Source of the DNA: a virus
Reading direction: 5' to 3' (one strand)
Virus record (IMG/VR): IMGVR_UViG_3300045988_149625
DNA: 64,000 nt
In this document: positions 6,450 to 52,709 of the stretch, piece by piece
How the letters are laid out: every line of letters begins with the position of its first letter
How positions within the stretch are numbered: position 1 is the stretch's first letter
The notes under the pieces: generated by a model
Told to the model about the DNA's origin: nothing
The model's database searches: none
The model's input: the letters and a program-made list of their open reading frames with translations, nothing else
Program-made: the position numbers and the translations under genes

Positions 6450-6818
6450 TTACAAGAGATTTCGCAACCTGTTGCGGTTCTCTATTCCACTTTCTACCCA
6501 CTCATTAAAACATTTCTTACAGCAATATCCTCTGCTATTGACATGGAAGTCTTTTATATCATCTATCTCTGCGCCGCAGGTATCGCAAATAAAATACCAA
6601 CCGTGGTTTAACCATTCCTCAACAGGAATACTGTCAACATCACCGTATTTATCTGCCCAAGGAGCACGCTGCACTCTGATGTCCTTGTAATGGATTCCGT
6701 TCTCCATGCTAAAATCTTGTTTTGCTTTTCCCGCTGTTTCAGCGAATGTTATTTCTTCCGATATGTCATCCATATCGTAGTCTGAAGCGTTGGCAAAAAT
6801 ATACGCTTTACATTTCAT
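6450..6818 (-). CDS. zinc-ribbon protein
   Basis: 122 aa; CDTCG...CCKKC motif. Confidence 0.4.
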   Translation of the reverse strand: MKCKAYIFANASDYDMDDISEEITFAETAGKAKQDFSMENGIHYKDIRVQRAPWADKYGDVDSIPVEEWLNHGWYFICDTCGAEIDDIKDFHVNSRGYCCKKCFNEWVESGIENRNRLRNLL

Positions 6819-6848
6819 TCTTATCTGCCTTTCAAAATCATACTTTAA

Positions 6849-7088
6849 TCATAAAGCACTTCCTATAATATTAACGCATCCACATCTAGTACATTTGTAA
6901 ATTGGATGCCCACTAAAAGATGCTTCCAATTCTGTGCTGCCACAGCTTGCACAACAATTAGAGTTACTGATTAAAGGACTTAAAATGTATAAAAAGATAA
7001 TCAATAAGACTAATAATAATACGCTATTCATTATTAACCTCCAAATATTGCATCCAACATACTTCCTATAATAAAGGAAATTATACAA
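6849..7088 (-). CDS. small membrane protein with C-terminal Cys cluster
   Basis: 79 aa; TM LLLVLLIIFLYIL then CCASCG...CTRCGC. Confidence 0.3.
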   Translation of the reverse strand: MYNFLYYRKYVGCNIWRLIMNSVLLLVLLIIFLYILSPLISNSNCCASCGSTELEASFSGHPIYKCTRCGCVNIIGSAL

Positions 7089-7315
7089 AGTGCATAGAAA
7101 TCACTTTCTTGATAAATATTAGTATGTTTATCTCTAGGACTGCTCATCATCGTTCTATATGTAGGGTGTCCTAAAATTCTGGACATAACATACAGATTGG
7201 AATGTTTGCTTTTCATAAGAATGTACCTCCATTTCTTGTATCTATTATAATACGTTGGAGGCACATTGTCAAGCACTATTTTAACTTTTTCCGCGAAAAT
7301 CTGGGAATAATTCAT
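7034..7315 (-). CDS. hypothetical protein
   Basis: 93 aa ORF. Confidence 0.3.
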   Translation of the reverse strand: MNYSQIFAEKVKIVLDNVPPTYYNRYKKWRYILMKSKHSNLYVMSRILGHPTYRTMMSSPRDKHTNIYQESDFYALCIISFIIGSMLDAIFGG

Positions 7316-7472
7316 GGGTATTTAGCCATTCAAGCGCTGGTATTCCATTAATTGTAATACCTCCACTCCCTTCTTTAAGAGGCATCCCCATATCTTCAAG
7401 AACCTTTTTAAATAATTCTACATCTTTATCCGTTATTGATTCTTTTCTCTGCTGTTTCATAATAATCCCCAT
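7281..7472 (-). CDS. hypothetical protein
   Basis: 63 aa ORF. Confidence 0.3.
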   Translation of the reverse strand: MGIIMKQQRKESITDKDVELFKKVLEDMGMPLKEGSGGITINGIPALEWLNTHELFPDFRGKS

Positions 7473-8180
7473 TTAATTCTATTCCTATAAAGTTGCGGTT
7501 TGTGTTAAGGCAAGCAACACCTGTACTTCCGCTGCCCATACAATTATCTAAAACTGTATCTCCTTCATGTGTATAGGTTTTGATAAGGTATTCCAATAAA
7601 GGTACAGGCTTTTCAGTAGGGTGGAAACCATTTGTAGGTTTATCAAAATATAAGATATTTCCTGGAAGTCTTTCTGTCACAGTCTTTGGTGCAAAATTTT
7701 CTTTAGGATGAAAATTAGAGACGACAACAGCACTAATGCCACCCTTTCGGTTAGAGCACCATGTATTTTTATAAGGTGCGCCCTTTTCCATAATTGGAAA
7801 GTAATTCATACTTCCCTTTTTAGAATGAGCACTTGCCATTTTAGAGAAAACCATAATATCTTCGTTTAATTTAAACGGTTGAAATTTTGCGTTTAAAAAG
7901 TTGCTTCCTTTATTCTTAACCCATTTCCAATCATACTTGTACGTAAGGGGGGGGGACAAGATAAGCGTAGGTGACTAGAGAATGGTTCATTTCCAAAGAG
8001 TACCACTGCTCCAGATGGCTTGATTAAACGAATATATTCCTGCCAAAGACGTTCAAAGTTTAGTACAGTATCCCATTTACACGCGCTTGTTCCATATGGT
8101 AAATCGCAGAGAATCATGTCAATACTTTCATCTTCTAAAATAGGAAATACTTTAAAACAATCTTCATTAAAAATTTTCAT
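7426..8180 (-). pseudogene. beta-class N6-adenine/N4-cytosine DNA methyltransferase, frame broken at a G9 homopolymer (candidate phase-variable gene)
   Basis: N-part (7893-8180) carries DPPY-like motif ILCDLPYGTS; C-part (7426-7959) carries SAM motif VLDNCMGSGSTGVA; the two frames overlap at GGGGGGGGG 7947-7955; a 10-G tract would give a continuous protein aligning with the paralog at 8794-9558. Confidence 0.75.
7947..7955. repeat. poly-G tract (9 G)
   Basis: homopolymer inside MTase coding sequence at the frame junction. Confidence 0.9.
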
Positions 8181-8479
8181 TGTGCCACACCGCCGTTCAA
8201 AAATGATTCAAAGTCGAAATTTAGATACTTTTTAACACCCCTCAAAGAATTAAAGCAGTCACTAAAATACTGATTTAAAATAAAGGTAGGACTGCCCTTA
8301 AATCTTTCAAGCTCTAAAAGGCTTACCAATCTAGAAACGTATTGGCAGCCATCATCGGTAGCATAATAAAGACGTATCAAGTAAGCAGTATAATCTGCAT
8401 CTAATTCAAAATCTAAATATACTATACTATCGTCAATTTTCCCTATGGGAAGTTTTCTACAATTTGGATAATAAAACAT
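8177..8479 (-). CDS. hypothetical protein
   Basis: 100 aa ORF between the two paralogous MTase genes. Confidence 0.4.
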   Translation of the reverse strand: MFYYPNCRKLPIGKIDDSIVYLDFELDADYTAYLIRLYYATDDGCQYVSRLVSLLELERFKGSPTFILNQYFSDCFNSLRGVKKYLNFDFESFLNGGVAQ

Positions 8480-8636
8480 TATAACAGCTCACTTTCTCAA
8501 ATAAGTTCCCAATCTTCAATGGTTCTAACTACTTTACGGACTTCACCGATAGAACAACCAGCATAATCATTATCACAATATTCTGTTAAACCTACCTCAT
8601 AACTAACACTATAAAGCTTCTCTTTGTAAGGGAAAA

Positions 8637-8876
8637 TTATAATGCAAAGTCCAATCCAACCCCTACATTACCCTCTACTTCATCAATCTCTTTATCCTCA
8701 GCATAGCTAACAACCTTTTTCCATTCTTGCTCGGTAAGTTTTTCGCCATTAATAGCTTTATCAAGTAATTCTTCAATAGTTAATTCAATTTTATCAAAAT
8801 TGTTCATATGTGAGTATCTCCTTTTCAATCCCTTTCTTTGCAGCATTAAAGTATGTTTCATTAAGCTCAAATCCAA
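8637..8876 (-). CDS. hypothetical protein
   Basis: 79 aa ORF. Confidence 0.35.
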   Translation of the reverse strand: MDLSLMKHTLMLQRKGLKRRYSHMNNFDKIELTIEELLDKAINGEKLTEQEWKKVVSYAEDKEIDEVEGNVGVGLDFAL

Positions 8877-9558
8877 TGTAGTTTCTATTAGTATGTAGAC
8901 ATGCTACACCTGTTGACCCACTACCCATACAGTTATCTAGGACTGTTTCTCCCTCATTGGTGTAGGTCTTAATTAGATACTCTAGCAAGGGTATAGGTTT
9001 TTGGGTGGGATGTATTGGTTTGGGAACACAATCAAACTGTAATGTATCCCAAGGATAATTAGTATATTCAGAAATGGTAACATCTTTATGCGAAGGTCTT
9101 TTCCCAGCCATAGTGCCAAATTTTGCTCCGCTTTTACCCCTGCGAATCGTCTTTTTTGCAATCAGTCCTTGGGGAAAGTATTTCATCTTGTTTTTGCCAC
9201 CATTTGCCGTTACACCTTTTGAAAAAACCGCAATTTCTTCATAGGAAGTCATAGGGCGATTTTTAGCATTTACGAAGTTTCCTCGTTTGTTTTTTAACCA
9301 TACCCATTTATATCTATATAACTTTTCGTTGCTGTTAATCAATTTGTGCGTAAACTGTCCACTGCAAAACAACACAATAGCTCCATTATTTTTAATTATT
9401 CGCTCATATTCTCCCCATAATTGGGAGAAGTCAATTACTTTATCCCAACCGCTTGCCGTAGTTCCATATGGCAAGTCACACAAAATCATGTCAACGCTTT
9501 TGTCAGGTATAGCCTTCATTAACTCTAAGCAATTACCTTGTTTAATATAACTCTGCAT
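8794..9558 (-). CDS. beta-class N6-adenine/N4-cytosine DNA methyltransferase (intact paralog)
   Basis: 254 aa; motif IV ILCDLPYGTT near N-term, motif I VLDNCMGSGSTGVAC near C-term (order IV...I, hence beta class). Confidence 0.8.
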   Translation of the reverse strand: MQSYIKQGNCLELMKAIPDKSVDMILCDLPYGTTASGWDKVIDFSQLWGEYERIIKNNGAIVLFCSGQFTHKLINSNEKLYRYKWVWLKNKRGNFVNAKNRPMTSYEEIAVFSKGVTANGGKNKMKYFPQGLIAKKTIRRGKSGAKFGTMAGKRPSHKDVTISEYTNYPWDTLQFDCVPKPIHPTQKPIPLLEYLIKTYTNEGETVLDNCMGSGSTGVACLHTNRNYIGFELNETYFNAAKKGIEKEILTYEQF

Positions 9559-18670: not shown

Positions 18671-20206
18671 ATGAGTGTTACTTTTATGACAGCACTACAA
18701 AACGAAGCAAATAAGAGTGTTACAGAAAACGGCGCAGTAGGGTACAACACCACCTACAATGAGCTGTTGGATTTTAATTATAAAGTACCTTCATTGCGTA
18801 AGGCAGATGATGCAAACTTGCAAAAAGAGGTAGCACTACTTGTTAGTAGCATTGTTGACCCCGAACTTTTGCTACGTTACATGTTCTTTTTGCGGGACGC
18901 GCGTGGAGGAATGGGTGAAAGACGTATCTTTCGTGCTATTTTAAAGGAACTTGCAAACAGGAACTTTGAATATGTTCCTAGGATGCTGCCTTTAATAGTT
19001 GAGTATGGAAGATATGACGACCTATTTGTTTTAAAGGATACACCATTTCAAGAGGAAATGGAAGGCTATATTATAGGAACTTTATTGTCAGATGAATATT
19101 CAATGGCTAATAATGAACCTTGTTCCTTACTTGCAAAATGGATGCCATCGGTTAATGCAAGTAGTAAAGAAACCATCAAACTTGCAAATTACTTTGCTAG
19201 AGATGTTTTTAATACTACACCTGCAAAATACCGCAAGCGTCTTTCTGCATTACGCAAGCACTTAAAGGTTGTTGAAGCACAGATTAGTCGCGGAGAGTTT
19301 TCTGAGATTAATTATGAAGGAGTACCTTCAAGAGCAAATCTGCGTTACTCTAATCTTTTCCTAGATAGAGATAATGAACGCAGAAGGCAGTATTTGAAGA
19401 GCTTAGCAAGTGGGAAAGTAAAGATTAATGCAGGAGTTCTTTACCCACAAGATATTGTGGCGAAGCTAAGAGGATTATCCGATTCTGTTTATAGCTTTAG
19501 ATTCTCCAAGCAGATTCCGCAGCTTTATAAGAACCAATATAATGCAATGTGGAAAGGACTCAAAGACTTTGGTGAGCTTAAAAATACTATTGTTGTAGTT
19601 GATACTAGCGGTTCAATGTTTGAACCTGTTAGTTCTTCTATTGCGGCAATAGATGCTTCTGTTGGTTTAGGTCTTTATTTTGCCGAAAGAAATGCGGGTG
19701 TCTTTAAAGATAAAATTATTACGTTTAGTGATAATCCTACATTTGTTGATGTATCTAAATATAACAATATTTTAGATAAATTAATAGCAGTTTCAAAAGC
19801 AGAGTGGGGATTTTCTACAAATGTTGAAGCAGTATTTGATTTAGTTCTAAGAACTGCGGTAGCAAATCACTGTGAACAGTCTGAGATTCCTAGAATCTTA
19901 ATCATTAGTGATATGGAATTTAATTACTGTGTTTCAGATTCAGAGCACTTTTTGATGAAGGATATAGAATCTGACTTTAAGGCAGCAGGTTATGAGCTTC
20001 CAAAGCTTTCATTCTGGAATGTAAATTCAAGAACGAATACTCTGCCTATCACACAGAATAAACAAGGGGTTGCACTTGTTAGTGGCTATTCCACTGCTTC
20101 AATAAAAGCTGTAATGAGCAATGAGGTAGACCCATATAAAGCTTTCCTAGAGTGTTTTTACACTCCTAGGTATGACTTTATAAAAGAAGTGTTGGACATT
20201 AAATGA
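18671..20206 (+). CDS. von Willebrand factor A domain protein (MIDAS DxSxS), possibly DUF2828-like
   Basis: track ORF begins inside tRNA-Asn; likelier start ATG 18671 (MSVTFMTALQ); vWA core IVVVDTSGSMF...ILIISDMEF. Confidence 0.55.
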   Translation: MSVTFMTALQNEANKSVTENGAVGYNTTYNELLDFNYKVPSLRKADDANLQKEVALLVSSIVDPELLLRYMFFLRDARGGMGERRIFRAILKELANRNFEYVPRMLPLIVEYGRYDDLFVLKDTPFQEEMEGYIIGTLLSDEYSMANNEPCSLLAKWMPSVNASSKETIKLANYFARDVFNTTPAKYRKRLSALRKHLKVVEAQISRGEFSEINYEGVPSRANLRYSNLFLDRDNERRRQYLKSLASGKVKINAGVLYPQDIVAKLRGLSDSVYSFRFSKQIPQLYKNQYNAMWKGLKDFGELKNTIVVVDTSGSMFEPVSSSIAAIDASVGLGLYFAERNAGVFKDKIITFSDNPTFVDVSKYNNILDKLIAVSKAEWGFSTNVEAVFDLVLRTAVANHCEQSEIPRILIISDMEFNYCVSDSEHFLMKDIESDFKAAGYELPKLSFWNVNSRTNTLPITQNKQGVALVSGYSTASIKAVMSNEVDPYKAFLECFYTPRYDFIKEVLDIK

Positions 20207-21496
20207 ATAAAAGACTACTCAAATGGGTAGTCTTTTTCCATAAGGAGGTAACAATGGTAAAATTTGTTAAAAAGCGGGATGGAAGTATAGTACCTTTTGA
20301 GAAGCAAAAGATTATAAATGCTATTGGTAAAGCGGGTTTTGTAAAAGAAGATATTAAAGAAAAAATTGCAGATGAAATTCTGCATCAAAAACAAGAAGAA
20401 CTTTCGGTAGAGGCTATACAAGATTTAGTGGAAAATAAGTTAATGGCTTCTTCTTGTAAAGAAACCGCTAAGGAATATATACGTTATCGTTATAAGAGAA
20501 AATTGATTAGAGAAACAAAAGATTCTTTAAGTGAAGTCTTAGATATTGTTAATCTCAGTAATCAAGAAGTGAATGAGGAAAATAGTAATAAAAACCCTGT
20601 TATTAACTCTACGCAGCGTGATTATATGGCTGGTATGGTGTCAAAAGAATTATCTGAGAAATTGTTATTCCCACCAGATGTAATGGAGGCACACAAAGCA
20701 GGTATTATTCATGTACATGACATGGATTATGCTATTCAAAAAATGTATAATTGTGCACTATTAGATATGGAAGATATGCTACAAAATGGTACAGTTATTA
20801 ACGGAACACTGATTGAGAAACCACATAGTTTTGCTACTGCTTGTAATATTGCCACACAGATTATGGCACAAGTTGCTTCTAATCAGTATGGTGGGCAGAG
20901 TGTTTCTATAACACATTTAGCACCATTTGTCAATACTTCAAGACAGAGATTGAGAAAAAAAGTTAGAGAAGAACTTGCTCCTTATTATGAAATCTGTGAG
21001 AGTGTGGTCTTTGATATTGCTGAAAAGCGATTGAAAGAGGAAATCACTAGAGGGGTTCAAACCATGCAGTATCAAATTAACACCCTTATGACTTCCAATG
21101 GTCAGACACCTTTTGTTACCTTATTCCTATATCTCAATGAAGCTAAGAATGAGCAGGAAAAGAAAGACCTTGCTATGGTAATTGAGGAAATCATTCGTCA
21201 GCGTTATCAAGGAGTCAAGAATGAAAAGGGTGCATGGATAACCCCTGCTTTTCCTAAGCTGATATATGTCTTAGAGGAAGATAATGTTAAGGAAGGAACT
21301 CCCTATTTTTACTTAACAAAGATGGCTGCAAAATGTACGGCTAAGAGGATGGTTCCAGATTATGTTTCTGAAAAGATTATGTTAGAGAATAAGAAAACGT
21401 CCGATGGTGTTGGACATTGTTATCCTCCTATGGGATGCAGAAGCTTCTTAACACCATATCTTGATGAAAATGGAAAAGCTAAATTCTATGGACGGT
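20203..21496 (+). CDS. nrdD: anaerobic ribonucleoside-triphosphate reductase NrdD, exon 1 (ATP-cone + catalytic core N-part)
   Basis: ATP-cone VKFVKKRDGSIVPFEKQKIINAI; core GIIHVHDMDY...; ORF ends abruptly without glycyl-radical motif; splices to 22316. Confidence 0.8.
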
Positions 21497-22315
21497 TGAC
21501 CATCTGTTGAGCCGTCCTTAAACTGTGTGAACGCATGATAAAGCGGTGTGGGGAATGAACCCTGCTAACGGTGAAACTCCTAATGGACAATACCGTGCCA
21601 ACTTATATTAATAATTATTCTATAATTGGAGGAAATTATTATGACATCAATATATTTAGAGAATAAAGAATTTAAAGAACTTGATATTAACCCTAACTAT
21701 TTTATCAGTGCCGATGGTGCTGTATTTTCACAATTTGCTAAAAAGTTATTGAAGCCTCTTTATAGAGGTGTACAAGGTAAGCTATATCCTTATGTATGTA
21801 TTTACTATCAAGGCAAGCAAAGAAAATTTGCTGTCCACCGCCTTGTATATCATACATGGGTACATCCTTTAAGTAAAGGGCAGCAAGTAAATCATAAGGA
21901 TGATAATGTGAATAATTGCCACTATACGAATCTTTATGTAGGCACTAAAAAAGATAATATTGGTGATTGTGTTGCTAATGAGCATAGAGTAGGTAACGTA
22001 TTTTATTTAACCTTATTTGATAAGCTCCTTAATAAAGTAATTTCTTTTTGTCCTGCTAGAAACTTCATTGCATATAGTGGGCATATAAATAAGAGTGGTT
22101 CTTTAAATAAATTCTTTTCTAAGCACTGGTTTAAAAAACGTTATGAAATTCTTGAATTTAAACGTATTAAAAATCTTGATGAATTAAAAGGTGTAACGAC
22201 TAATGGTGATGAGTGTAACCATGTAGGATAGAGTTTATCACTATCCGAAGCGCACAGCACTTACTTAGTAAGTGAAGATATAGTCTAATCTTTATAGTAA
22301 TATAAAGTATTTATG
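21497..22315 (+). mobile_element. group I intron in nrdD carrying an HNH homing endonuclease ORF
   Basis: 5' exon ends in U of gacggU; internal guide gccgtc (21513-21518) pairs with it via G.U; intron ends in G (22315); joining gives in-frame cgg-ttc-aac-caa-ggg (GRFNQGVVTINL). Confidence 0.75.
21626..22231 (+). CDS. HNH homing endonuclease (intron-encoded)
   Basis: 201 aa; FAVHRLVYHTWVHPLSKGQQVNHKDDNVNNCHYTNL (H-N-H-like). Confidence 0.8.
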   Translation: MEEIIMTSIYLENKEFKELDINPNYFISADGAVFSQFAKKLLKPLYRGVQGKLYPYVCIYYQGKQRKFAVHRLVYHTWVHPLSKGQQVNHKDDNVNNCHYTNLYVGTKKDNIGDCVANEHRVGNVFYLTLFDKLLNKVISFCPARNFIAYSGHINKSGSLNKFFSKHWFKKRYEILEFKRIKNLDELKGVTTNGDECNHVG

Positions 22316-23241
22316 TCAACCAAGGGGTTGTCACAATAAATCTTGTTGATGTAGGATTATCTGCAAATGGCGATAAAGAAAAATTCTGGAAGATTTTAGA
22401 TGAGCGGTTAGAATTATGCCATAAAGCATTAAGGGTAAGACACCAAAATCTTAAAGGTACAATTTCTAATGTTTCACCTATTCACTGGCAGTATGGGGCT
22501 ATTGCAAGACTTCAAAAGGGAGAGAAGATTGATAAGTTATTGGAGAATGGTTACTCCACAATTTCTTTAGGGTATGCAGGTTTATATGAATGTGTTTTGG
22601 CTATGACAGGTAAATCGCATACTGACCCAGAGGCAAAGCCTTTTGCTTTAGCTATTATGCAGAGATTAAATGATAAATGTGCAGAGTGGAAAGAATTAGA
22701 GGGGTTAGGATATTCTGTATATGGTACTCCTATTGAATCAACAACTTATAAATTTGCAAAATGTTTAAAGAGCCGTTTTGGTGAGATTAAAGGCATTACA
22801 GACCACGATTATATTACTAATAGTTATCATGTTCATGTGAGAGAGCCAATAGATGCTTTTACAAAATTGAAATTTGAATCTGAATTTCAATTACTTAGTC
22901 CAGGTGGGGCTATTAGCTATATTGAATGTGCTGATATGACTAAGAATTTAGATGCTGTTATCACAGTTATTCAGTTTATTTATGATAATATTATGTATGC
23001 TGAATTAAATACTAAGAGTGATTATTGTCAAGTCTGTGGATATGATGGTGAGATTAAGATTGTTACTGACCACGGCAGACTAGAGTGGGAGTGTCCGAAT
23101 TGTGGAAATAAAGACAAGACAAAAATGAATGTCGCGCGTAGGACGTGCGGCTACATTGGAAGTCAGTTTTGGAATCAAGGACGTACCGAAGAAATTCGTG
23201 ACAGATTCGTACATTTAGGTGGGGATTTTAGCGTATTATGA
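22316..23241 (+). CDS. nrdD: NrdD exon 2 (C-terminal Zn-ribbon and glycyl-radical motif)
   Basis: open frame from 22316 reads ...NQGVVTINLVDVGLSANGDKEKFWKILDERLELCHKAL...; CQVCGYDGE...CPNCG; radical motif RRTCGYIGS. Confidence 0.8.
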
Positions 23242-45946: not shown

Positions 45947-46552
45947 ATGCAGAGATTAAGAAGAATAGAAGAAACTGAAACACTTGCAAACTCCTTAGAC
46001 CCTATAAATAAGAATTTTGAAAGTGTACAATCACAACATAGTGGTACAAGTTTCCCCCAAGATAATTTAGTTTTGGGACAACCTTGTTTTAGAACAGATA
46101 CAATGAGTCTTTATATCCTATCTAATGTGGAGTATAACTTATGGATAAAGGTAGCAGATTTAACATTAACACTTGTTAATAAGGAGTATGTGGATACATT
46201 CCATATCCCTCTTAGCAGGGTGGATGATATAATAGATGCTGCTACAAATAAGATTAAAATGAGCCTTATGTATACAGGCACACAAAATGGACAATTAGTA
46301 ATGGTAGGAAATAATAATAAGATAGCAACAAGCCTTATTGATACAGGGGTTAAGGCAGGACAGGTTGTGATGGTAAATGCAGATGGTAAAATACCTAATG
46401 GTATTTTAAATATAGGTTATGGTAGGGAAGAGATACCTATATTGAATGATAAAGCACTTATTCCAGATACCATTTTACCGAGTAATTTAGCGCGTTTTAA
46501 TGAGAGCGGACAAATAGTATTTCCTAATGGTACGAAAATGTGGGTGAAATAG
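45947..46552 (+). CDS. tail fibre-associated protein
   Basis: 201 aa. Confidence 0.4.
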   Translation: MQRLRRIEETETLANSLDPINKNFESVQSQHSGTSFPQDNLVLGQPCFRTDTMSLYILSNVEYNLWIKVADLTLTLVNKEYVDTFHIPLSRVDDIIDAATNKIKMSLMYTGTQNGQLVMVGNNNKIATSLIDTGVKAGQVVMVNADGKIPNGILNIGYGREEIPILNDKALIPDTILPSNLARFNESGQIVFPNGTKMWVK

Positions 46553-46553
46553 T

Positions 46554-47357
46554 ATGGGTGTAACAGAGCATGTTTTAAACATACAAAGTAGTAATAATAA
46601 AAAAGTAGTTCCTTTATATGATACACCTACTTGTAGCTATACAGGAAGGTCTTTACCAATTAAATTAGCTAATGGTTCAACTGTGTATGCACCTCTAGGT
46701 GTTACAGATGATTTGTATGGAACACAGCTTTGGGTAGAAATTGATGGAGCGTCTTATAGAGTGGTTGAGCAAAGTGTGCAAGGTATTCAAGGTGTAAACT
46801 TTGATAAGACTGTAAAAATAGAATTTAGTGGTAGCGGTGAGCGCACAGCTAAATATGATACTTTTTATTTTGTAGCACCAAGAAGAACCAAGTTTCATTA
46901 TAAAAGTATGGTTAATTACGGACAAACTGGTTGGGGATACAGCTCTGATAGGTGGCAACGTAGTGATATATGGATAAACTTAGATGGAAATCTACTTGTT
47001 AAGAAAACTTTTAGACGCAGTGCAGGCATTAATTGGAAAACTCTATATGATGGGGACATTGAATTAGATGCAGGAACACATCGAATGGAACTTTGGCTTT
47101 TGGGGCAAGGCTCTAGTAAAGATAGTCATTTAACTGTTTGTTATGCTTGGAACAATGATTTGTTAATGTCTGGACAACAATTTGTCCAATATTCAAGTCC
47201 AGGTACGTATGACTTCACAGTTCCTAAGGGTGTGGAAAGCATTACCATCGTGACTGTTGGTGGTGGCGGTGGTGGAGCAGGGTATGGATACACCCCCCAA
47301 GAAGATAGTGGTAGCGGCCCCAGTCAAGGTGAAGGTAGTGGAGGCGAAGGAGCATGA
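46554..47357 (+). CDS. tail fibre protein with Gly-rich C-terminus
   Basis: 267 aa ending TVGGGGGGAGYGYTPQEDSGSGPSQGEGSGGEGA. Confidence 0.45.
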   Translation: MGVTEHVLNIQSSNNKKVVPLYDTPTCSYTGRSLPIKLANGSTVYAPLGVTDDLYGTQLWVEIDGASYRVVEQSVQGIQGVNFDKTVKIEFSGSGERTAKYDTFYFVAPRRTKFHYKSMVNYGQTGWGYSSDRWQRSDIWINLDGNLLVKKTFRRSAGINWKTLYDGDIELDAGTHRMELWLLGQGSSKDSHLTVCYAWNNDLLMSGQQFVQYSSPGTYDFTVPKGVESITIVTVGGGGGGAGYGYTPQEDSGSGPSQGEGSGGEGA

Positions 47358-47836
47358 GTAGTTATCCTTATACACAAGTTATTGTAGATGCTAAAGGCAC
47401 AGATGGTGGAAATTCTAAGGCTTCTTTAAATGGAGCAGATATAATTCTTGCAACTGGGGGCAGTGGTGCAAAATATAAAAGAACTCGTACCCATGTTAAT
47501 TGGCACAGCTCTACTGAGTCCGAAGAAAAGCAGGTAGGTAGGGGTGGTACACCAAATGGCATAGATGGCACTTATTCAGTATCTGGCACAAAGGGGTATG
47601 ATATTCGTCCAGAGGTTACTAGAGGTTCTTATGGTAGCGGGGGAGGTTGTTCAAATACTAATACAGTTGTATATCCTGTATCTGGGGGCAGTGGTGGTAT
47701 TAATATTGTCACCATTCCTGTTAAGGAAGGGGATAGATTACAAATCACTGTTGGAAGCGCGGGTGCAGGTGGTGGAATTGGTTTAGCAGGAAATGCAGGA
47801 GCGGTAGCATTATGGTATTACAAATTGGGAAACTAA
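47354..47836 (+). CDS. Gly-rich tail fibre-associated protein
   Basis: 160 aa; SYGSGGGCSNT, VSGGSGGINIV, GSAGAGGGIGLAGNAGAVALWYY; 3' end overlaps radical-SAM gene start by 25 nt. Confidence 0.45.
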   Translation: MSSYPYTQVIVDAKGTDGGNSKASLNGADIILATGGSGAKYKRTRTHVNWHSSTESEEKQVGRGGTPNGIDGTYSVSGTKGYDIRPEVTRGSYGSGGGCSNTNTVVYPVSGGSGGINIVTIPVKEGDRLQITVGSAGAGGGIGLAGNAGAVALWYYKLGN

Positions 47837-49035
47837 TAGATAATATATTAGTGGCAAAATTTATAACAAATAATACATTAAAAGAGTTTAAAGATTTAGT
47901 TGGGGAAGGAGATTATGTGGATATTACAGGGGTCGACATTCAAGAGGGTGACAAATTTGTTAATGGGGATGCTATTCATTGTGAGGGCGATTCATTATCC
48001 AAGGAAGGTGTAAAAGCACTTTATCTGATGCTAGGCAGTGCGTGTAATATGTCTTGCAGACATTGTACACAAACTCCTATTAAAGGTAATGTTGCTTTTC
48101 CTACTACTGAGTTAAGTAAGGATGTACTAGATTTTATAGTAAATTGGGATAAAAATGGCGGTGGAAGGTTATATTTTTGGGGCGGTGAACCTTTACTTTA
48201 TTGGAATACAATAAAGAAACTTATAGAAGAGTTTGAAAAAATGGGAATGAGAAATACTTCTTATCGCATTTTCACCAATGGTCTATTACTTTCAAATTCC
48301 ATTGTAGACTTTTGTAACAAACATAATATATGGGTAATTATGAGTTATGATGCACCTAACCCCTTAGCTGCAAGAAACGCCATGCCGTCAGAGAGAAATA
48401 TAGAAGCTTTCTTGTTGGCAGAAAAAAGAACAGTAAATGGTGTATACAATGCCTTAAACTGTGATATGGTAGCTGCTTTTAAATACTTGGAGTCAAAATT
48501 TCCTAATACTGAGGTAACTCTAGGGTTTATAAATGTATTATGGGATATACCAAAAGACTTATACGCTTTTGGAAAAGGCGAAGTAAGAAAGGCGGTAAAA
48601 GATTTATTTGAATATTATAAAGAAACAAGGGATTCAAATGTACACAGGTGGTTTGAAACTAAACTTAGAAGAGGGAATTACTTTTCCATTGAAGAATTTA
48701 TGCTTTCCCCATTTCCTCCCTGTGCACCTGGGCGTATCTCTTTATCTATAGATTTTGCAGGTAATATAATAAGATGCCACAATGACGATAAAGTGGTTGC
48801 AAATATTAAAGATGATTATTCAGATATATTAAAAGCACATGAAATGGAGTGGCTAAAGTTATTGCCAAGAAATTGTGCAGAATGTGAATGTCTACCTTTG
48901 TGCAGGTCAATTTGTCCAATAGCCTATAAGAAAGAAAACAAAGAAGAATTTGTACAATGTGATTATATAAGGGAGTTTTTTAGCGCGGTGCAGGAATGTG
49001 CCGATGATTTTTGGAGAATGGAAGGTGAGATGTAA
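47812..49035 (+). CDS. radical SAM enzyme with C-terminal SPASM domain (anSME/peptide-maturase clade)
   Basis: 407 aa; CNMSCRHC (CxxxCxxC), WGGEPLL, C-terminal seven-Cys cluster CAPGRIS...RCHNDD...NCAECECLPLCRSICP; stop abuts ATG of DGR target gene. Confidence 0.85.
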   Translation: MVLQIGKLIDNILVAKFITNNTLKEFKDLVGEGDYVDITGVDIQEGDKFVNGDAIHCEGDSLSKEGVKALYLMLGSACNMSCRHCTQTPIKGNVAFPTTELSKDVLDFIVNWDKNGGGRLYFWGGEPLLYWNTIKKLIEEFEKMGMRNTSYRIFTNGLLLSNSIVDFCNKHNIWVIMSYDAPNPLAARNAMPSERNIEAFLLAEKRTVNGVYNALNCDMVAAFKYLESKFPNTEVTLGFINVLWDIPKDLYAFGKGEVRKAVKDLFEYYKETRDSNVHRWFETKLRRGNYFSIEEFMLSPFPPCAPGRISLSIDFAGNIIRCHNDDKVVANIKDDYSDILKAHEMEWLKLLPRNCAECECLPLCRSICPIAYKKENKEEFVQCDYIREFFSAVQECADDFWRMEGEM

Positions 49036-50970
49036 ATGGCAAGCTTTCATAACTGGACAGGTGATGAATTAATTGATACACAAGTCCCACAGTTTTTAAA
49101 TGAAGATAATGCAGCAACACAGGAGAAATTAGACACTAAATTTAATAAATCCTTAGATATAGCAGAAGCCTCAGACTTAAACAATTTTAAGGATGAGGGG
49201 TTCTACTGCTGTAATTCTAATTCTCGTGCTGAAACTATTTTAAATTGTCCTACTAATTATGCTTTCGGTTTAATGGTATGGGGTAAAGGCGAAATAGTCT
49301 ATCAAGAAGTGCGCGAATTTAACAGAGGCTCTAACCAAGATTACAATAACTGTTGGAGAAGAAGTTATTCTGGGGGCGGACAAGGTGTGTGGTCTAACTG
49401 GCAGAAAGTGGCTTATGCAGCTACTACTTTAGCAGAATACGGAATAACAGACGGTATGGGCAAGAACGCCACAAACAGTGTGGGTGTGACAGATATTATT
49501 AAAAGAAGTATTAATACGTCGTACTTGCGTTTAACAGGTGGCAATACATTTGATAAAAGTGCAACTCTTCAACTCTGCGGAGGTACTTATGCAACAAACG
49601 CAGGACAGTTTTTATTAAAAGCAGCAGATTCAGCACACTCAGCAACTCTTTCAGGTAATCCTTCTGGGCTACTTAAATGGAATGATAAAAATATAGTACG
49701 TTCAGTAAATAATTCTGTTGCAGATGAACATGGTAATGTAACTTTACTGTTCCCCGACTCAGATGTAACGCAGGAAGGCGCGGGGTACTGGAAGCCTAAT
49801 GAATCAGTACAAGAAGGGGATATACGTTATGTGTATGGTAGAGGAAACACAGGTGTTGTTTTAAAATGTGTGAAAGCAGGAATAACAGGAGCAGAATTAC
49901 CAGATTTAGAGGCTGCTTCAAATGCTGTGCAATTAGTAACAGAAACTACTACTGAGGTAAAACCTTTTGATATATTGGATTATGTATCACAAGTACCAGA
50001 ATATTACACACGCCCTAGTTTGTATACAGTTTCAAAAAAATCTATAACTATACCTAAGGGGTTACGTGTAAGAATTGGTGATAAAGGTTATGAGAGTGTT
50101 AGTACAACTACATTAAGCACTACATCTTTGGGAAGTTTGGCAGCAAAAGATGTTTATATATATGCTTGTGCTCCTATTACTTTATCTACTGAGCCAATAT
50201 TTGTACTTTCATTAAATAGTACAGTACCTAGTGGGTATACCGCAGAAAACAGTCGCAAGATTGGCGGTTTTCATTGCTTATGTGCAGATGTTGGTACAAT
50301 AAGTGGACATACTTTAAGTGGTTATGTAGCAGGTGACATACTTCCTGCTTCTGCATGGGATTTAATTCATCGTCCACGATGTTCCCCCGAAGCAATGGTG
50401 TATTGTGATACGGTGGACTTTTGGGTCGATATATATTTGGATAGTTGGGATGGTAACAAATTAGTATCTGTATACAAAGGTGTTACAGCAGACGGAACTT
50501 CCACTAAAAAGTTTCATGGTGAGCTTTTTGTAGATGAGCTTGCAAAATTGAATAAAAGACTACCTCCAAGAAGAGTATTTCAAGCAATAATGAAAGGCTC
50601 AAATGAACGCACCAATGTTAAAGGTTCGAAAGACGTAAATACTACTGGTGGTAATGTAGATACAGCAGGTCGAAGAATGATAAGTAATTATGGTTGTGAA
50701 GATGGCTGCGGTTTCTTGTGGCAATGGTCTGATGAACTAGGTTTTGCAGGTGGTAGTGCATGGACAGATTCAGTATATAATTCAAGTGTCGATTCTGAAA
50801 GAATTGGACAAACTTATGGAACTTTGTATAGAGCTGCGCTGGGCGGTTGCTGGGTTCACGGCGGTTCTTGTGGTTCGCGGTCGGTGTTTTGCAGCCATTC
50901 CTCGGCTCTTGTCAGTGCTTATTTTGGCGGTCGCGGCGCTTGCGAGCCGAAGGTCGCAAAGTTCTATTAG
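49036..50970 (+). CDS. DGR target protein: tail fibre/receptor-binding protein with C-terminal variable (C-type-lectin-like) region
   Basis: 644 aa; 3' 115 nt form VR matching TR except at TR adenines. Confidence 0.85.
   Translation: MASFHNWTGDELIDTQVPQFLNEDNAATQEKLDTKFNKSLDIAEASDLNNFKDEGFYCCNSNSRAETILNCPTNYAFGLMVWGKGEIVYQEVREFNRGSNQDYNNCWRRSYSGGGQGVWSNWQKVAYAATTLAEYGITDGMGKNATNSVGVTDIIKRSINTSYLRLTGGNTFDKSATLQLCGGTYATNAGQFLLKAADSAHSATLSGNPSGLLKWNDKNIVRSVNNSVADEHGNVTLLFPDSDVTQEGAGYWKPNESVQEGDIRYVYGRGNTGVVLKCVKAGITGAELPDLEAASNAVQLVTETTTEVKPFDILDYVSQVPEYYTRPSLYTVSKKSITIPKGLRVRIGDKGYESVSTTTLSTTSLGSLAAKDVYIYACAPITLSTEPIFVLSLNSTVPSGYTAENSRKIGGFHCLCADVGTISGHTLSGYVAGDILPASAWDLIHRPRCSPEAMVYCDTVDFWVDIYLDSWDGNKLVSVYKGVTADGTSTKKFHGELFVDELAKLNKRLPPRRVFQAIMKGSNERTNVKGSKDVNTTGGNVDTAGRRMISNYGCEDGCGFLWQWSDELGFAGGSAWTDSVYNSSVDSERIGQTYGTLYRAALGGCWVHGGSCGSRSVFCSHSSALVSAYFGGRGACEPKVAKFY
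50831..50945 (+). repeat. DGR variable repeat (VR)
   Basis: 115 nt aligned to TR: 26 mismatches, all at TR A positions; GC-rich 3' end ggcggtcgcggcgcttgcga (IMH-like). Confidence 0.9.
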
Positions 50971-51046
50971 AACTAGGTATACGGCTACATGAAGTTGTTA
51001 AGGAACACGAAGTAGTCTTGAATATACTGGGTTGTGGTTGTTAAAA

Positions 51047-51161
51047 GAGCTAAACTAGGCGGTAACTGGGATAACAGCAGTTCTTGTAGTTCGCAGTCAG
51101 TGAATTGCAACAATTCCTCAGCTAATGTCAATGCTAATTATGGCGGTCGCGGCGCTTGCGA
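51047..51161 (+). repeat. DGR template repeat (TR)
   Basis: AAC/AAT-rich (LGGNWDNSSSCSSQSVNCNNSSANVNANYGGRGACD in VR frame), non-coding copy. Confidence 0.9.
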
Positions 51162-51416
51162 TACGGAGAGAGCTATTCCTTCGGCTGAACCACAATCCAT
51201 TCTAGCAGAGAAATACTGTATAGAAAAACACACAACAGGAGTATAGAAGGGCTAGTAGTGTAAACGAACGTCATTCTATAAAACTCCGTATCTTTAAATA
51301 AAGGAGAAATAAACTTGAAAAGAATTGGGAATTTATGAACTAAAATTATAGATAAAGAAAATATTAAGGAGAGTATTTTAAGCGCTGCAAAACATAAGAA
51401 AAAGCGCCCTGCGGTA

Positions 51417-52709
51417 ATGAAGGTACTCAATAATATAGACGAATATGTAGAAAAGATTCACAAATTGTTAGTAAACAAGGAGTATAAAGTTTCGGAATAT
51501 TATATAAAAGCAATTTATGAGCCTAAGCTAAGGCTTATTTACATATTACCCTTTTATCCAGATAATATAATATTTCACTGCATAATGAGGGTATTAGAGC
51601 CTATATGGGACAGTAGGTTTATTTATGATACTTATTCATGCAGGAAGGGTAAGGGGCAACATAAAGGAATGTTAAAGAGCACTATATACGTAAAGAATTA
51701 CAAATACTGCTTAAAATGTGATATAAGTCAGTTTTACCCAAGCCTTAATCATAGAATACTAAAGGAAAGTTTCCGTTGGAAAATCAAAGATAAGGACGTA
51801 TTGGAGCTACTTGACTTAATAGTAGATAGTGTTTCTGTGCGGGAAAGGAATCTAGATTTTTTAAAGTGCTGCAAGGCAAGTGATAAACATATGATGGAAC
51901 AGAAGCTTCAAACATTAAAAGAAGAGTTCCCAGAAGGAGATTTCGGTGTGCCTATTGGTAATTATCCTTCACAATGGTTCGGAAACCTTTATATGAACCC
52001 TTTAGATAACCTTATTAAGTACTGTTTCCATGCAAAAGCATATGTAAGATACTGCGACGATTTTGTTGTTTACAGTAATGATAAAAAGTGGTTACATAGT
52101 GTAGCTGCGGAGATAGAGAACTTTTGTAAGGAAAGATTAAAATTAAAGATGAGTAAGTGTCGGGTATTTCCTACGAAGTGTGGAGTAGATTTCTTAGGGT
52201 ATAAAGCATTTCCCAGTGGTAAGATTCTTTTGCGTAAAAGGACAGCAAAAAGAGTCCATAAACAAATAAAAGCATTATGGAAAGAGCTATCTTATGGGAA
52301 CTATGAACAAATGCTTTCTAAAGTGGGAAGCAGAATGGGGTATTTAAGGTACGCTAAAAGTTATAATTTTAGATTACAAATAAAGATTAAAGAGTTGGAA
52401 AGGGAACTAAAAAGGAGGATTAGTATGGTAGGTTATCCAAAAAATTTAAGCACAAAAGAAGATTATGAGTACGTGAGAACACATTTCCCTAAAAGTGATT
52501 GGCAGAAAGACTTTGAAAGTCTTTTACCTCGCAAGGAATGGTTCTTCATTGAAGAAACTAAGGTTAATAAAAAAGAAGATGCTACTCATAAAACAGAACC
52601 CTCTGACGATGAAGGGGTATTCTATCGTTATGAATTGAGGGGGGTAAGTAAGGCAGCAGAAATTGGATATACGGTAGAAGAAGTAGAGAAGATTCTAAGG
52701 AGTGAATAA
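51417..52709 (+). CDS. DGR reverse transcriptase
   Basis: 430 aa; RT motifs LKCDISQFYPS, GVPIGNYPSQ, YVRYCDDFVV (YxDD); the frame is open upstream to 51339 with RT-like residues but no ATG. Confidence 0.9.
   Translation: MKVLNNIDEYVEKIHKLLVNKEYKVSEYYIKAIYEPKLRLIYILPFYPDNIIFHCIMRVLEPIWDSRFIYDTYSCRKGKGQHKGMLKSTIYVKNYKYCLKCDISQFYPSLNHRILKESFRWKIKDKDVLELLDLIVDSVSVRERNLDFLKCCKASDKHMMEQKLQTLKEEFPEGDFGVPIGNYPSQWFGNLYMNPLDNLIKYCFHAKAYVRYCDDFVVYSNDKKWLHSVAAEIENFCKERLKLKMSKCRVFPTKCGVDFLGYKAFPSGKILLRKRTAKRVHKQIKALWKELSYGNYEQMLSKVGSRMGYLRYAKSYNFRLQIKIKELERELKRRISMVGYPKNLSTKEDYEYVRTHFPKSDWQKDFESLLPRKEWFFIEETKVNKKEDATHKTEPSDDEGVFYRYELRGVSKAAEIGYTVEEVEKILRSE

Follow-up and report, generated by a model that had tools for sequence, protein, structure and literature searches.

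A conserved C-terminal tag on proteins of phage tail-fibre modules as the candidate substrate of a neighbouring radical-SAM/SPASM enzyme

Gene content of the locus

The IMG/VR virus record IMGVR_UViG_3300045988_149625, from a gut phage, was analysed as one stretch of 64,000 nucleotides (nt), hereafter the window, in which a gene for an enzyme of the radical S-adenosylmethionine (SAM; radical-SAM, rSAM)/SPASM type stands among tail-fibre genes. The genes concerned are all on the plus strand. A fibre protein of 201 amino acids (aa; 45947..46552; C-terminus ...IVFPNGTKMWVK) lies directly 5' of a 267-aa protein (46554..47357; also called as a gene in L001-L003, L numbers denoting individual loci), which we refer to as the carrier. 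It is composed of a ~205-aa predicted all-beta N-terminal region, the opening strand of a Gly-rich domain together with its Gly loop, a variable linker and a conserved C-terminal tag (47322..47354), S257-Q-G-E260-G-S262-G-G-E265-G-A267, which contains two tandem [S/C]-x-x-E units and is directly followed by the stop codon. The carrier gene shares an ATGA overlap with the gene for a 160-aa Gly-rich protein (47354..47836), probably the rest of the split Gly-rich domain, and the ATG of the rSAM gene (47812..49035, 407 aa) is located 25 nt within the 3' end of this 160-aa gene, with an AGGAG sequence 10 nt 5' of the start. The TAA stop of the rSAM gene directly abuts the ATG of the gene for a 644-aa Mtd-like protein (49036..50970), the target of a diversity-generating retroelement (DGR) and a neighbour rather than a conserved partner of the enzyme.

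A preliminary description of this DNA had listed the 160-, 407- and 644-aa open reading frames (ORFs), the 25-nt overlap and the TAA-ATG abutment, all of which we find at the same positions, and had overlooked the end of the 267-aa protein (…SQGEGSGGEGA), which is separated from the rSAM start by 455 nt. A megablast of the region against GenBank phages returned no match, and a promoter/terminator scan gave a site count no higher than in shuffled sequence.

An rSAM/SPASM enzyme outside the curated families

The 407-aa ORF is a genuine rSAM/SPASM enzyme of the peptide- or protein-modifying type and not NrdG. In an alignment of 32 homologues CNMSCRHC (C78/C82/C85; 48043-48066) and WGGEPLLY (GGEP at 48181-48192) are invariant, and seven C-terminal Cys (C304, C322, C355, C358, C364, C368 and C383; SPASM region ~48721-48960) are conserved in the enzyme family. 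Together with scores above the cut-offs of Pfam Radical_SAM (PF04055; 37.2 bits vs 29.5) and NCBIfam SPASM (TIGR04085; 31.5 bits vs 27), this bears out the CxxxCxxC cluster, GGEP motif and seven-Cys SPASM architecture first read from the translation.

A hidden Markov model comparison with rSAM/SPASM subfamilies, suggested in the preliminary description, reached no curated NCBIfam equivalog cut-off. The best NCBIfam matches were the models of PapB (NF047865; 67.3 bits vs a cut-off of 340) and the SCIFF maturase (TIGR03974; 64.4 bits vs 425, with the rSAM core alone aligned), followed by QhpD (49.9 bits vs 453), HxsB (43.7 vs 370), the anaerobic sulfatase-maturing enzyme (anSME; TIGR03942, 42.3 vs 349) and HxsC (31.5 vs 268). 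No six-Cys SCIFF peptide is encoded beside the enzyme, the adjoining ORFs being fibre proteins. An AlphaFold2 (AF2) model built from the family alignment (mean predicted local distance difference test score, pLDDT, 91.5) has as its nearest solved structures anSMEcpe (top), CteB, ChlB, TigE and SuiB, and the family profile matches TigE (8VPO) at E = 5e-34, CteB (5WGG) at 2e-30 and anSME at 2e-18.

The profile begins to align only at about residue 87-97 of CteB and TigE, and for this reason we take the family to lack the N-terminal recognition element (RRE) of enzymes acting on peptides that the ribosome makes and that are modified after translation (RiPPs). Residues 1-55 of the window enzyme (47812..47976) form a small beta/alpha domain, un-RRE-like in size and secondary-structure order in the AF2 model, which a disordered linker (residues 57-63) joins to the core. 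This domain was encountered only in the window lineage (and in P0010, P0013 and P0014, P numbers denoting individual proteins), and residues 1-62 were covered by no relative in a HMMER census of 1.84 billion cluster representatives. The same census yielded 74 relatives at E≤1e-30, nearly all of 330-410 aa and ~5 of them at ≥45% identity. The matching PHROG (phrog_1802, 1e-32) has no function label, and related viral proteins carry generic names only in viral structure databases. Four longer relatives (P0080, P0084, P0103 and P0109; 663-800 aa) have an extra region N-terminal to the enzyme-matching part, which in P0080 and P0084 is a second radical-SAM/SPASM module.

A fixed position in four unrelated tail modules

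Homologue contexts were drawn from metagenome assemblies, IMG/VR and GTDB genomes. Homologues of 34-55% identity occupy an equivalent site, past the baseplate or central fibre and among fibre genes, in a siphovirus-like module (the window, with DUF2460/Phage-tail_3, and L279, with GpJ), a P2-like myovirus module (L004), another myovirus module (L006) and a T7-like podovirus module (L280; PF03906 tail fibre). The placement of the rSAM gene in a fibre operon is thus conserved across four unrelated tail architectures and not accidental. A complete carrier (...GEGSGGEGSGGE) with an rSAM gene is also found in the cultured rumen anaerobe Succiniclasticum ruminis DSM 9236 (L092; NZ_FONL01000010.1, ~6665-9023), presumably in a prophage.

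The C-terminal tag and its association with the enzyme

The end peptides were near-identical in the first three contexts compared, namely the window, L004 (ORF 5' of the enzyme ending …GSGGEGSGGEGG) and L006 (counterpart ending …HGEGSGGEGSASGGEA). Across the four tail architectures a tag adjoins the enzyme at every family locus with intact upstream sequence, on carriers that are unrelated to one another. When 166 sequences (~2.3 Mb) were scanned in six frames with the strict motif G[ED]G.GG[ED]G, it was found at 25 loci, always as GEGSGGEG, in the orientation of the rSAM gene and ≤~500 nt from it, with 0-7 residues between motif and stop codon, and nowhere else in these sequences. The remaining family loci carry variant tags (…GESSGGEGN, …SQGEGSFSEGEGGGF, …SSGSGGEGSGGEGGA), while none of 2,159 background ORFs of the family loci has a Gly/Glu/Ser-rich end.

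The eight-residue core is written in 12 nucleotide versions, in which every Gly codon varies and AGY as well as TCC codons are used for Ser, so that selection acts on the peptide and not on a ribosome-binding or RNA signal. A Shine-Dalgarno or RNA-signal origin of the tag is ruled out by these synonymous versions, by the AGY/TCC switch and by the 455-nt distance in the window; that the carrier is fused, through frameshifting or read-through, to the gene behind it or to the rSAM gene was rejected on the lack of a slippery sequence and on frame relations that are inconsistent among loci.

The association also holds in the reciprocal direction. Tag-coding DNA was matched 141 times in 2.9 million IMG/VR viral contigs, and all 12 matches that a credible ORF reads in frame as its own C-terminus come from rSAM-bearing contigs (the rSAM gene is within the fetched stretch for 10 of them, the other two being partial stretches of contigs known to carry it). 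Apparent tags lacking an rSAM gene were all discarded, being (AAEKA)n repeats of GC-rich DNA read out of frame, linkers internal to a protein or stretches that are not ORFs. Among them, the GC-rich contigs L213, L227, L229 and L232 have 15-nt tandem repeats that read (GEGSG)n in one frame and (AAEKA)n in that of the ORF; no rSAM gene was seen near these four false matches.

A natural loss control is provided by L282, which follows the tail module of the window gene for gene up to the carrier (42-72% identity). Its carrier homologue (P0098) ends at residue ~205 and has neither the Gly-rich segment nor the tag, and both the 160-aa protein and the enzyme are absent as well; within the window lineage the 160-aa protein occurs only where the tag and the rSAM gene occur.

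Tag class follows enzyme clade

In a comparison based on the clustering of 118 enzyme sequences, all 33 loci with enzymes 45-100% identical to that of the window have Cys-free Ser/Gly/Glu tags, and all nine with enzymes 31-40% identical have tags of Cys with Gly/Glu (…DDSSCGSEGGCGGGEA, …SCSVDSSGCGGEGG, …GCGAEGCGGESSS). Most of the distant clusters (20-28% identity) are accompanied by (Cys-Xaa)n tails such as NCNCNCNCDCNCACGDG, CACACACACGK and CSYCSYCSYC…. The tag class thus co-diversifies with the enzyme clade. When the window tag (S-Q-G-E-G-S-G-G-E) is set against that of the sister-clade locus L281 (C-G-A-E-G-C-G-G-E), Ser and Cys occupy equal positions, each with a Glu three residues on. 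L281 (4186-10297) has a 593-aa carrier ending ...GSGCGAEGCGGESSS, behind which lie four tandem radical-SAM genes.

Prophages of Bradyrhizobium, Variovorax and Magnetospirillum belong to the distant group, as does Ralstonia phage RSP15 with a side tail fibre ending …NTNCQCGN. Homologues of 20-31% identity lie behind (Cys-Xaa)n-tailed fibre proteins in Achromobacter phage JWF (L276, 2664-6185), RSP15 (L277, 2251-6161) and L035-L111, and a conserved protein of ~240-295 aa is usually found between fibre gene and rSAM gene at such loci. The 201-aa fibre protein of the window has homologues (34-42% identity) at the distant loci L035/36/39/40/74/77/80/102/109, some of which end in a (Cys-Xaa)n tail of their own beside a distant rSAM gene. 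Its IVFPNGTKMWVK-type C-terminal motif recurs in the gene before tag carriers at other family loci: a sequence of the form ...(T)DG.(I/L).FP.G...W(V/I)x closes the fibre gene directly before each carrier in the window (46510-46552), L279 (4590-4640), L280 (5430-5476), L014 and L034. This shared end suggests that the junction at which that fibre protein meets the tag carrier is conserved.

Carriers and the free C-terminus

The carriers range from 62 to 593 aa and comprise 62-69-aa ORFs (the first strand and loop of Gly_rich_2), beta-rich proteins of ~200 aa and of 441-593 aa, and the 267-aa protein of the window. Compared with NCBIfam and PHROGs, they gave nothing past generic tail-fibre matches. 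The tag is at the extreme C-terminus at all loci.

In L006-type phages a Gly_rich_2 domain is split at the tag, with profile positions 3-40 in a 69-aa ORF, then the rSAM gene, then an ORF that resumes from position 43. In the window, residues 215-255 of the 267-aa protein weakly match profile positions 2-38, and the concatenated 267- and 160-aa proteins weakly match positions 2-141; tblastn against GenBank phages found no unsplit homologue of this pair, and PHROG matches were weak. The split of the Gly-rich domain is therefore solid for L006, whereas it is only suggestive for the window.

A different arrangement is seen in the tail fibre gp028 of phage JWF, encoded two genes 5' of the rSAM gene, where …NCNCDCNCNCSC is directly followed by an intein-like Hint domain beginning CFPAGTMVLMADG. 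Autocleavage by this domain would bare the Cys repeat as a new C-terminus. The split gene of L006 and the Hint domain of JWF are genetic solutions independent of each other that lead to one outcome, and together they suggest that the enzyme needs a free C-terminal tail.

Proposed maturation of the tag

We suggest that the C-terminal tag of the upstream fibre-module protein is the substrate of the rSAM enzyme, and put the probability of this at roughly 60%. The preliminary description had proposed a post-translational modification of a tail-fibre component; on the strength of the genomic pairing we retain this as the best reading, while the presumed substrate shifts from the variable tail of the DGR target to the tag of the upstream protein. 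An RRE-less and thus leader-independent rSAM/SPASM maturase would bind the free tail directly, in the window that of the 267-aa protein, cleave SAM and, through the 5'-deoxyadenosyl radical, take a hydrogen from the tag and install a modification. The most likely product would be two small i-to-i+3 rings joining Ser or Cys to Glu, by thioethers in the Cys clades and by an ether or other link in the Cys-free clade. Rings are proposed because the sister tags pair Cys with Glu/Asp and because the nearest characterised enzymes (CteB, PapB, QhpD) include thioether formers. We hold ring formation specifically to be less probable than modification of the tag as such; formylglycine oxidation of Ser or Cys, epimerisation and C-C coupling have also been considered. 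As to purpose, we would guess at a C-terminal knot, rigid and resistant to proteases (those of the gut included), that the fibre needs for its assembly or stability. Genomic comparison thus lends support to the pairing of enzyme and tag, and both chemistry and purpose are guesses.

Several observations weigh against this proposal. The evidence for the pairing is entirely genomic, consisting of co-occurrence, co-loss and co-diversification, and at L282 the whole distal cassette has been swapped, so that the tag is not separable there from the other cassette genes. The tag-bearing gene of the window is not adjacent to the rSAM gene, with the 160-aa gene between them, and the carrier is a predicted virion component with a poor AF2 model (pLDDT 47 from three sequences), too poor for a fold search. 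At least two [S/C]xx[E/D] units are present in 20 of 23 tags against one of 425 background ORFs, a contrast which is descriptive only, as the unit was derived from the same data. Further to that, the window tag has no Cys, so that the thioether precedent does not literally apply, and we know of no precedent for a Ser-to-Glu ether formed by an rSAM enzyme.

A broader generalisation seems possible, and we advance it only tentatively: a portable C-terminal tag with an adjacent gene for an RRE-less rSAM/SPASM enzyme may have spread through the fibre modules of sipho-, myo- and podoviruses as an unrecognised class of rSAM-matured proteins, with (Cys-Xaa)n tails in phages of Proteobacteria, JWF and RSP15 among them, and tags of the C-x-x-E or S-x-x-E type where the hosts are gut anaerobes. 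In the clade of the window the tag would have lost every Cys; if it is modified nonetheless, the chemistry on this Ser/Glu/Gly peptide of a virion component, for example an aldehyde, a C-C link or an ether ring from Ser-O to Glu, would be without known precedent.

Alternative explanations

The alternative that survives best, although we regard it as unlikely, keeps the same tag and changes the chemistry: in the manner of an anSME, the enzyme would oxidise Ser (Cys in the sister clades) to C-alpha-formylglycine, leaving a reactive aldehyde instead of a ring. anSMEs accept Cys- and Ser-type substrates, Cys and Ser are equivalent in the sister-clade tags, and anSMEcpe, likewise without an RRE, is the top structural neighbour. 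However, the anSME family membership considered in the preliminary description fails (42 bits vs 349), even if the formylglycine chemistry stays as a rival, and the family profile is nearer to TigE and CteB than to anSME. The sulfatase motif (C/S-x-P/A-x-R) occurs in none of 23 tags, with no sulfatase among annotated neighbours, and the conserved SPASM Cys number seven; the SPASM domain has eight in anSME and seven in CteB.

Slightly less probable still is that the tag, as a flexible acidic tail, serves only to signal docking or assembly and that the enzyme modifies another site or fibre protein such as the halves of the Gly-rich domain. Co-occurrence by itself does not place the modification in the tag, and several loci do have Gly-rich partner proteins. 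Against this, many carriers are without a Gly-rich domain (L004, L014, L091, L279, L280), leaving the tag as the sole element common to all carriers, and the Cys-rich tails of the sister and distant clades resemble classic rSAM core peptides.

We find it very improbable that the enzyme acts, as first proposed, on the Cys/Ser-rich variable tail of the downstream Mtd-like receptor-binding protein to form a thioether or formylglycine. The abutting TAA and ATG, the Cys and Ser within the variable repeat (VR) and the location of rSAM gene and target gene in one swapped cassette (window vs L282) speak for such a role. The DGR itself is genuine: all mismatches between the VR (50830-50952) and the template repeat (TR; 51046-51168) are at TR adenines, the target matches the second domain of Pfam Mtd (7e-22), and a reverse transcriptase (RT) is encoded at 51417-52709, which confirms the earlier assignment of the downstream gene as a DGR target. 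A GC-rich hairpin (TTGCGA...TCGCAA, 50940-50959) just inside the 3' end of the VR-containing repeat copy presumably corresponds to the type found downstream of DGR variable regions.

Nevertheless, tblastn detected an Mtd-like neighbour at no more than 5 of the 37 family loci, each of them in a near-identical relative from the window lineage, and the co-occurrence of rSAM-SPASM genes and DGR targets, for which the preliminary description had suggested a synteny search, is confined to these five. The homologue loci of 34-55% identity have no DGR, whether their tail module is P2-like, of another myovirus type, of siphovirus type or T7-like. Most tellingly, L010 (9225-11526), which unlike L282 does separate the DGR from tag and enzyme, keeps the tag, the 160-aa protein and a 95% identical enzyme and has no VR, TR or RT; its downstream protein matches the window target over residues 1-237 only and then diverges. 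An enzyme kept without the DGR indicates that the DGR cassette was gained or lost within the phage lineage, with a breakpoint near target residue 237. A hypervariable stretch would also be ill suited as a constant site of recognition, in contrast to the invariant tag. The DGR is real, yet no conserved partner of the enzyme, and its variable tail is not supported as the substrate.

Least probable of all is an auxiliary metabolic or otherwise unrelated late-operon gene (for host sulfatase maturation, cofactor or nucleotide chemistry) or an NrdD activase: this would be in line with the presence of nrdD, with the enzyme being the sole CxxxCxxC ORF in the 64-kb window (no NrdG-like one was found there) and with public labels such as 'arylsulfatase regulator' or 'Fe-S oxidoreductase' for such phage genes, but it is countered by the fibre-module position and strict tag link conserved across unrelated phages, by a context free of sulfatases, by the 407-aa length and SPASM domain with two auxiliary clusters, by the distance of 24 kb from nrdD, by the absence of an NrdG model from the 25 best NCBIfam matches listed and by the fact that the window is part of a ~100-kb genome, so that NrdG may lie outside it or come from the host. 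NrdG-type activases are small, single-cluster proteins of less than half the size of the present enzyme, and its size, SPASM domain and location inside the fibre operon, far from nrdD, uphold the initial view that it is not NrdG. The nrdD gene itself is split into an N-terminal half (20203-21510; ATP-cone and NRDD profile 1-276) and a C-terminal half (22540-23241; glycyl-radical domain, profile 355-562) with an HNH endonuclease ORF (21626-22231) between them, which looks like an intron or homing-endonuclease interruption.

Relation to known rSAM systems

The SCIFF/ranthipeptide maturases (CteB, 5WGG; PapB, NF047865) are similar to the present family in combining an rSAM domain with a seven-Cys SPASM domain, and we take the seven, rather than eight, conserved SPASM Cys of the window family to match CteB, in which auxiliary cluster I leaves a site open for substrate binding. 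They also act on short C-terminal motifs, with a donor and an acidic or other acceptor a few residues apart (Cys-X3-Asp in the PapB precursor), to which the C-x-x-E/D tags of the sister clade are similar. Unlike them, the present family scores far below the respective cut-offs, has no RRE, has candidate substrates in fibre modules (62-593 aa) instead of small secreted peptides and, in the window, a Cys-free tag with no protease or transporter genes nearby. Of the canonical RiPP features, a core-like C-terminal tag is seen, the RRE is absent, the carriers are of the lengths given above, and no protease or transporter gene was seen among annotated neighbours.

Resemblance to anSME (PDB 4K36-4K39) lies in structure (Foldseek E 3e-14; template-modelling score up to about 0.6-0.67) and in RRE-less action, here a proposed one, on a full-size protein; the present family differs in standing in a phage fibre operon without a sulfatase and in tags without the sulfatase motif. 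QhpD is an rSAM-SPASM enzyme that makes intra-protein Cys-to-Asp/Glu thioethers in a protein subunit, and Cys with Glu/Asp is likewise the make-up of the sister-clade tags; genomic context and the Cys-free window tag set it apart.

The methyl-cyclopropylglycine synthase TigE has a repeated TIGSVS motif as its substrate, TvgB has the motif TVGG, and the defining feature of this cyclopropyl synthase family is a GYW motif in which the Tyr is a ligand of auxiliary cluster I (PMC10878394). By profile TigE/TvgB (8VPO) is the best solved relative of the present family, and short tandem repeats, here in the candidate substrate, are a common trait. Membership of the cyclopropyl synthases fails all the same, because GYW is absent, the window enzyme having H-R-W-F at the aligned position and the family as a whole [R/A/Q/H]-W-F; moreover, the tag is without Val/Ile, and the N-terminal extension of TigE is missing. 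In the HXS antiphage system HxsA, a repeat-bearing full-size protein, becomes functional only after maturation by the rSAM enzymes HxsB/HxsC (PMC13128918). A full-size protein with short repeats, rSAM maturation and a setting in phage-host conflict would be shared with the present case; HXS is nonetheless a host-encoded defence, with a His-Xaa-Ser repeat and two enzymes plus HxsD.

Phage rSAM genes have been treated as metabolic or of unknown role (PMC2853527), and rSAM cassettes were noted, without interpretation, in a pelagimyophage host-recognition cluster (PMC7029224). In agreement with the preliminary description, according to which no phage receptor-binding apparatus matured by an rSAM enzyme was known, we found no account of rSAM maturation of tail fibres in open-access papers and bioRxiv, so that earlier work elsewhere is possible, and none of the curated families compared covers it either. 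rSAM-SPASM maturases of peptides and proteins are well known; what would be new here is the substrate class, the recognition logic and possibly the chemistry.

Implications

With its short and clearly delimited sequence, the Cys-free GEGSGGEG tag lends itself as a substrate to the search for new rSAM chemistry, and the system is within cultured reach in S. ruminis DSM 9236 (L092), with distant relatives in phages JWF and RSP15. The proposal, if true, would account for many genes that in phages currently pass as "Fe-S oxidoreductase", "arylsulfatase regulator" or auxiliary metabolic genes. Should the pairing of enzyme and tag be real, the host-recognition apparatus of many phages would bear rSAM cross-links or modifications that are invisible to sequence and structure prediction. 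Fibre stability, assembly and engineering would then be affected, in that fibres produced in the absence of the maturase might lack activity, and RiPP-type chemistry would reach virion proteins.

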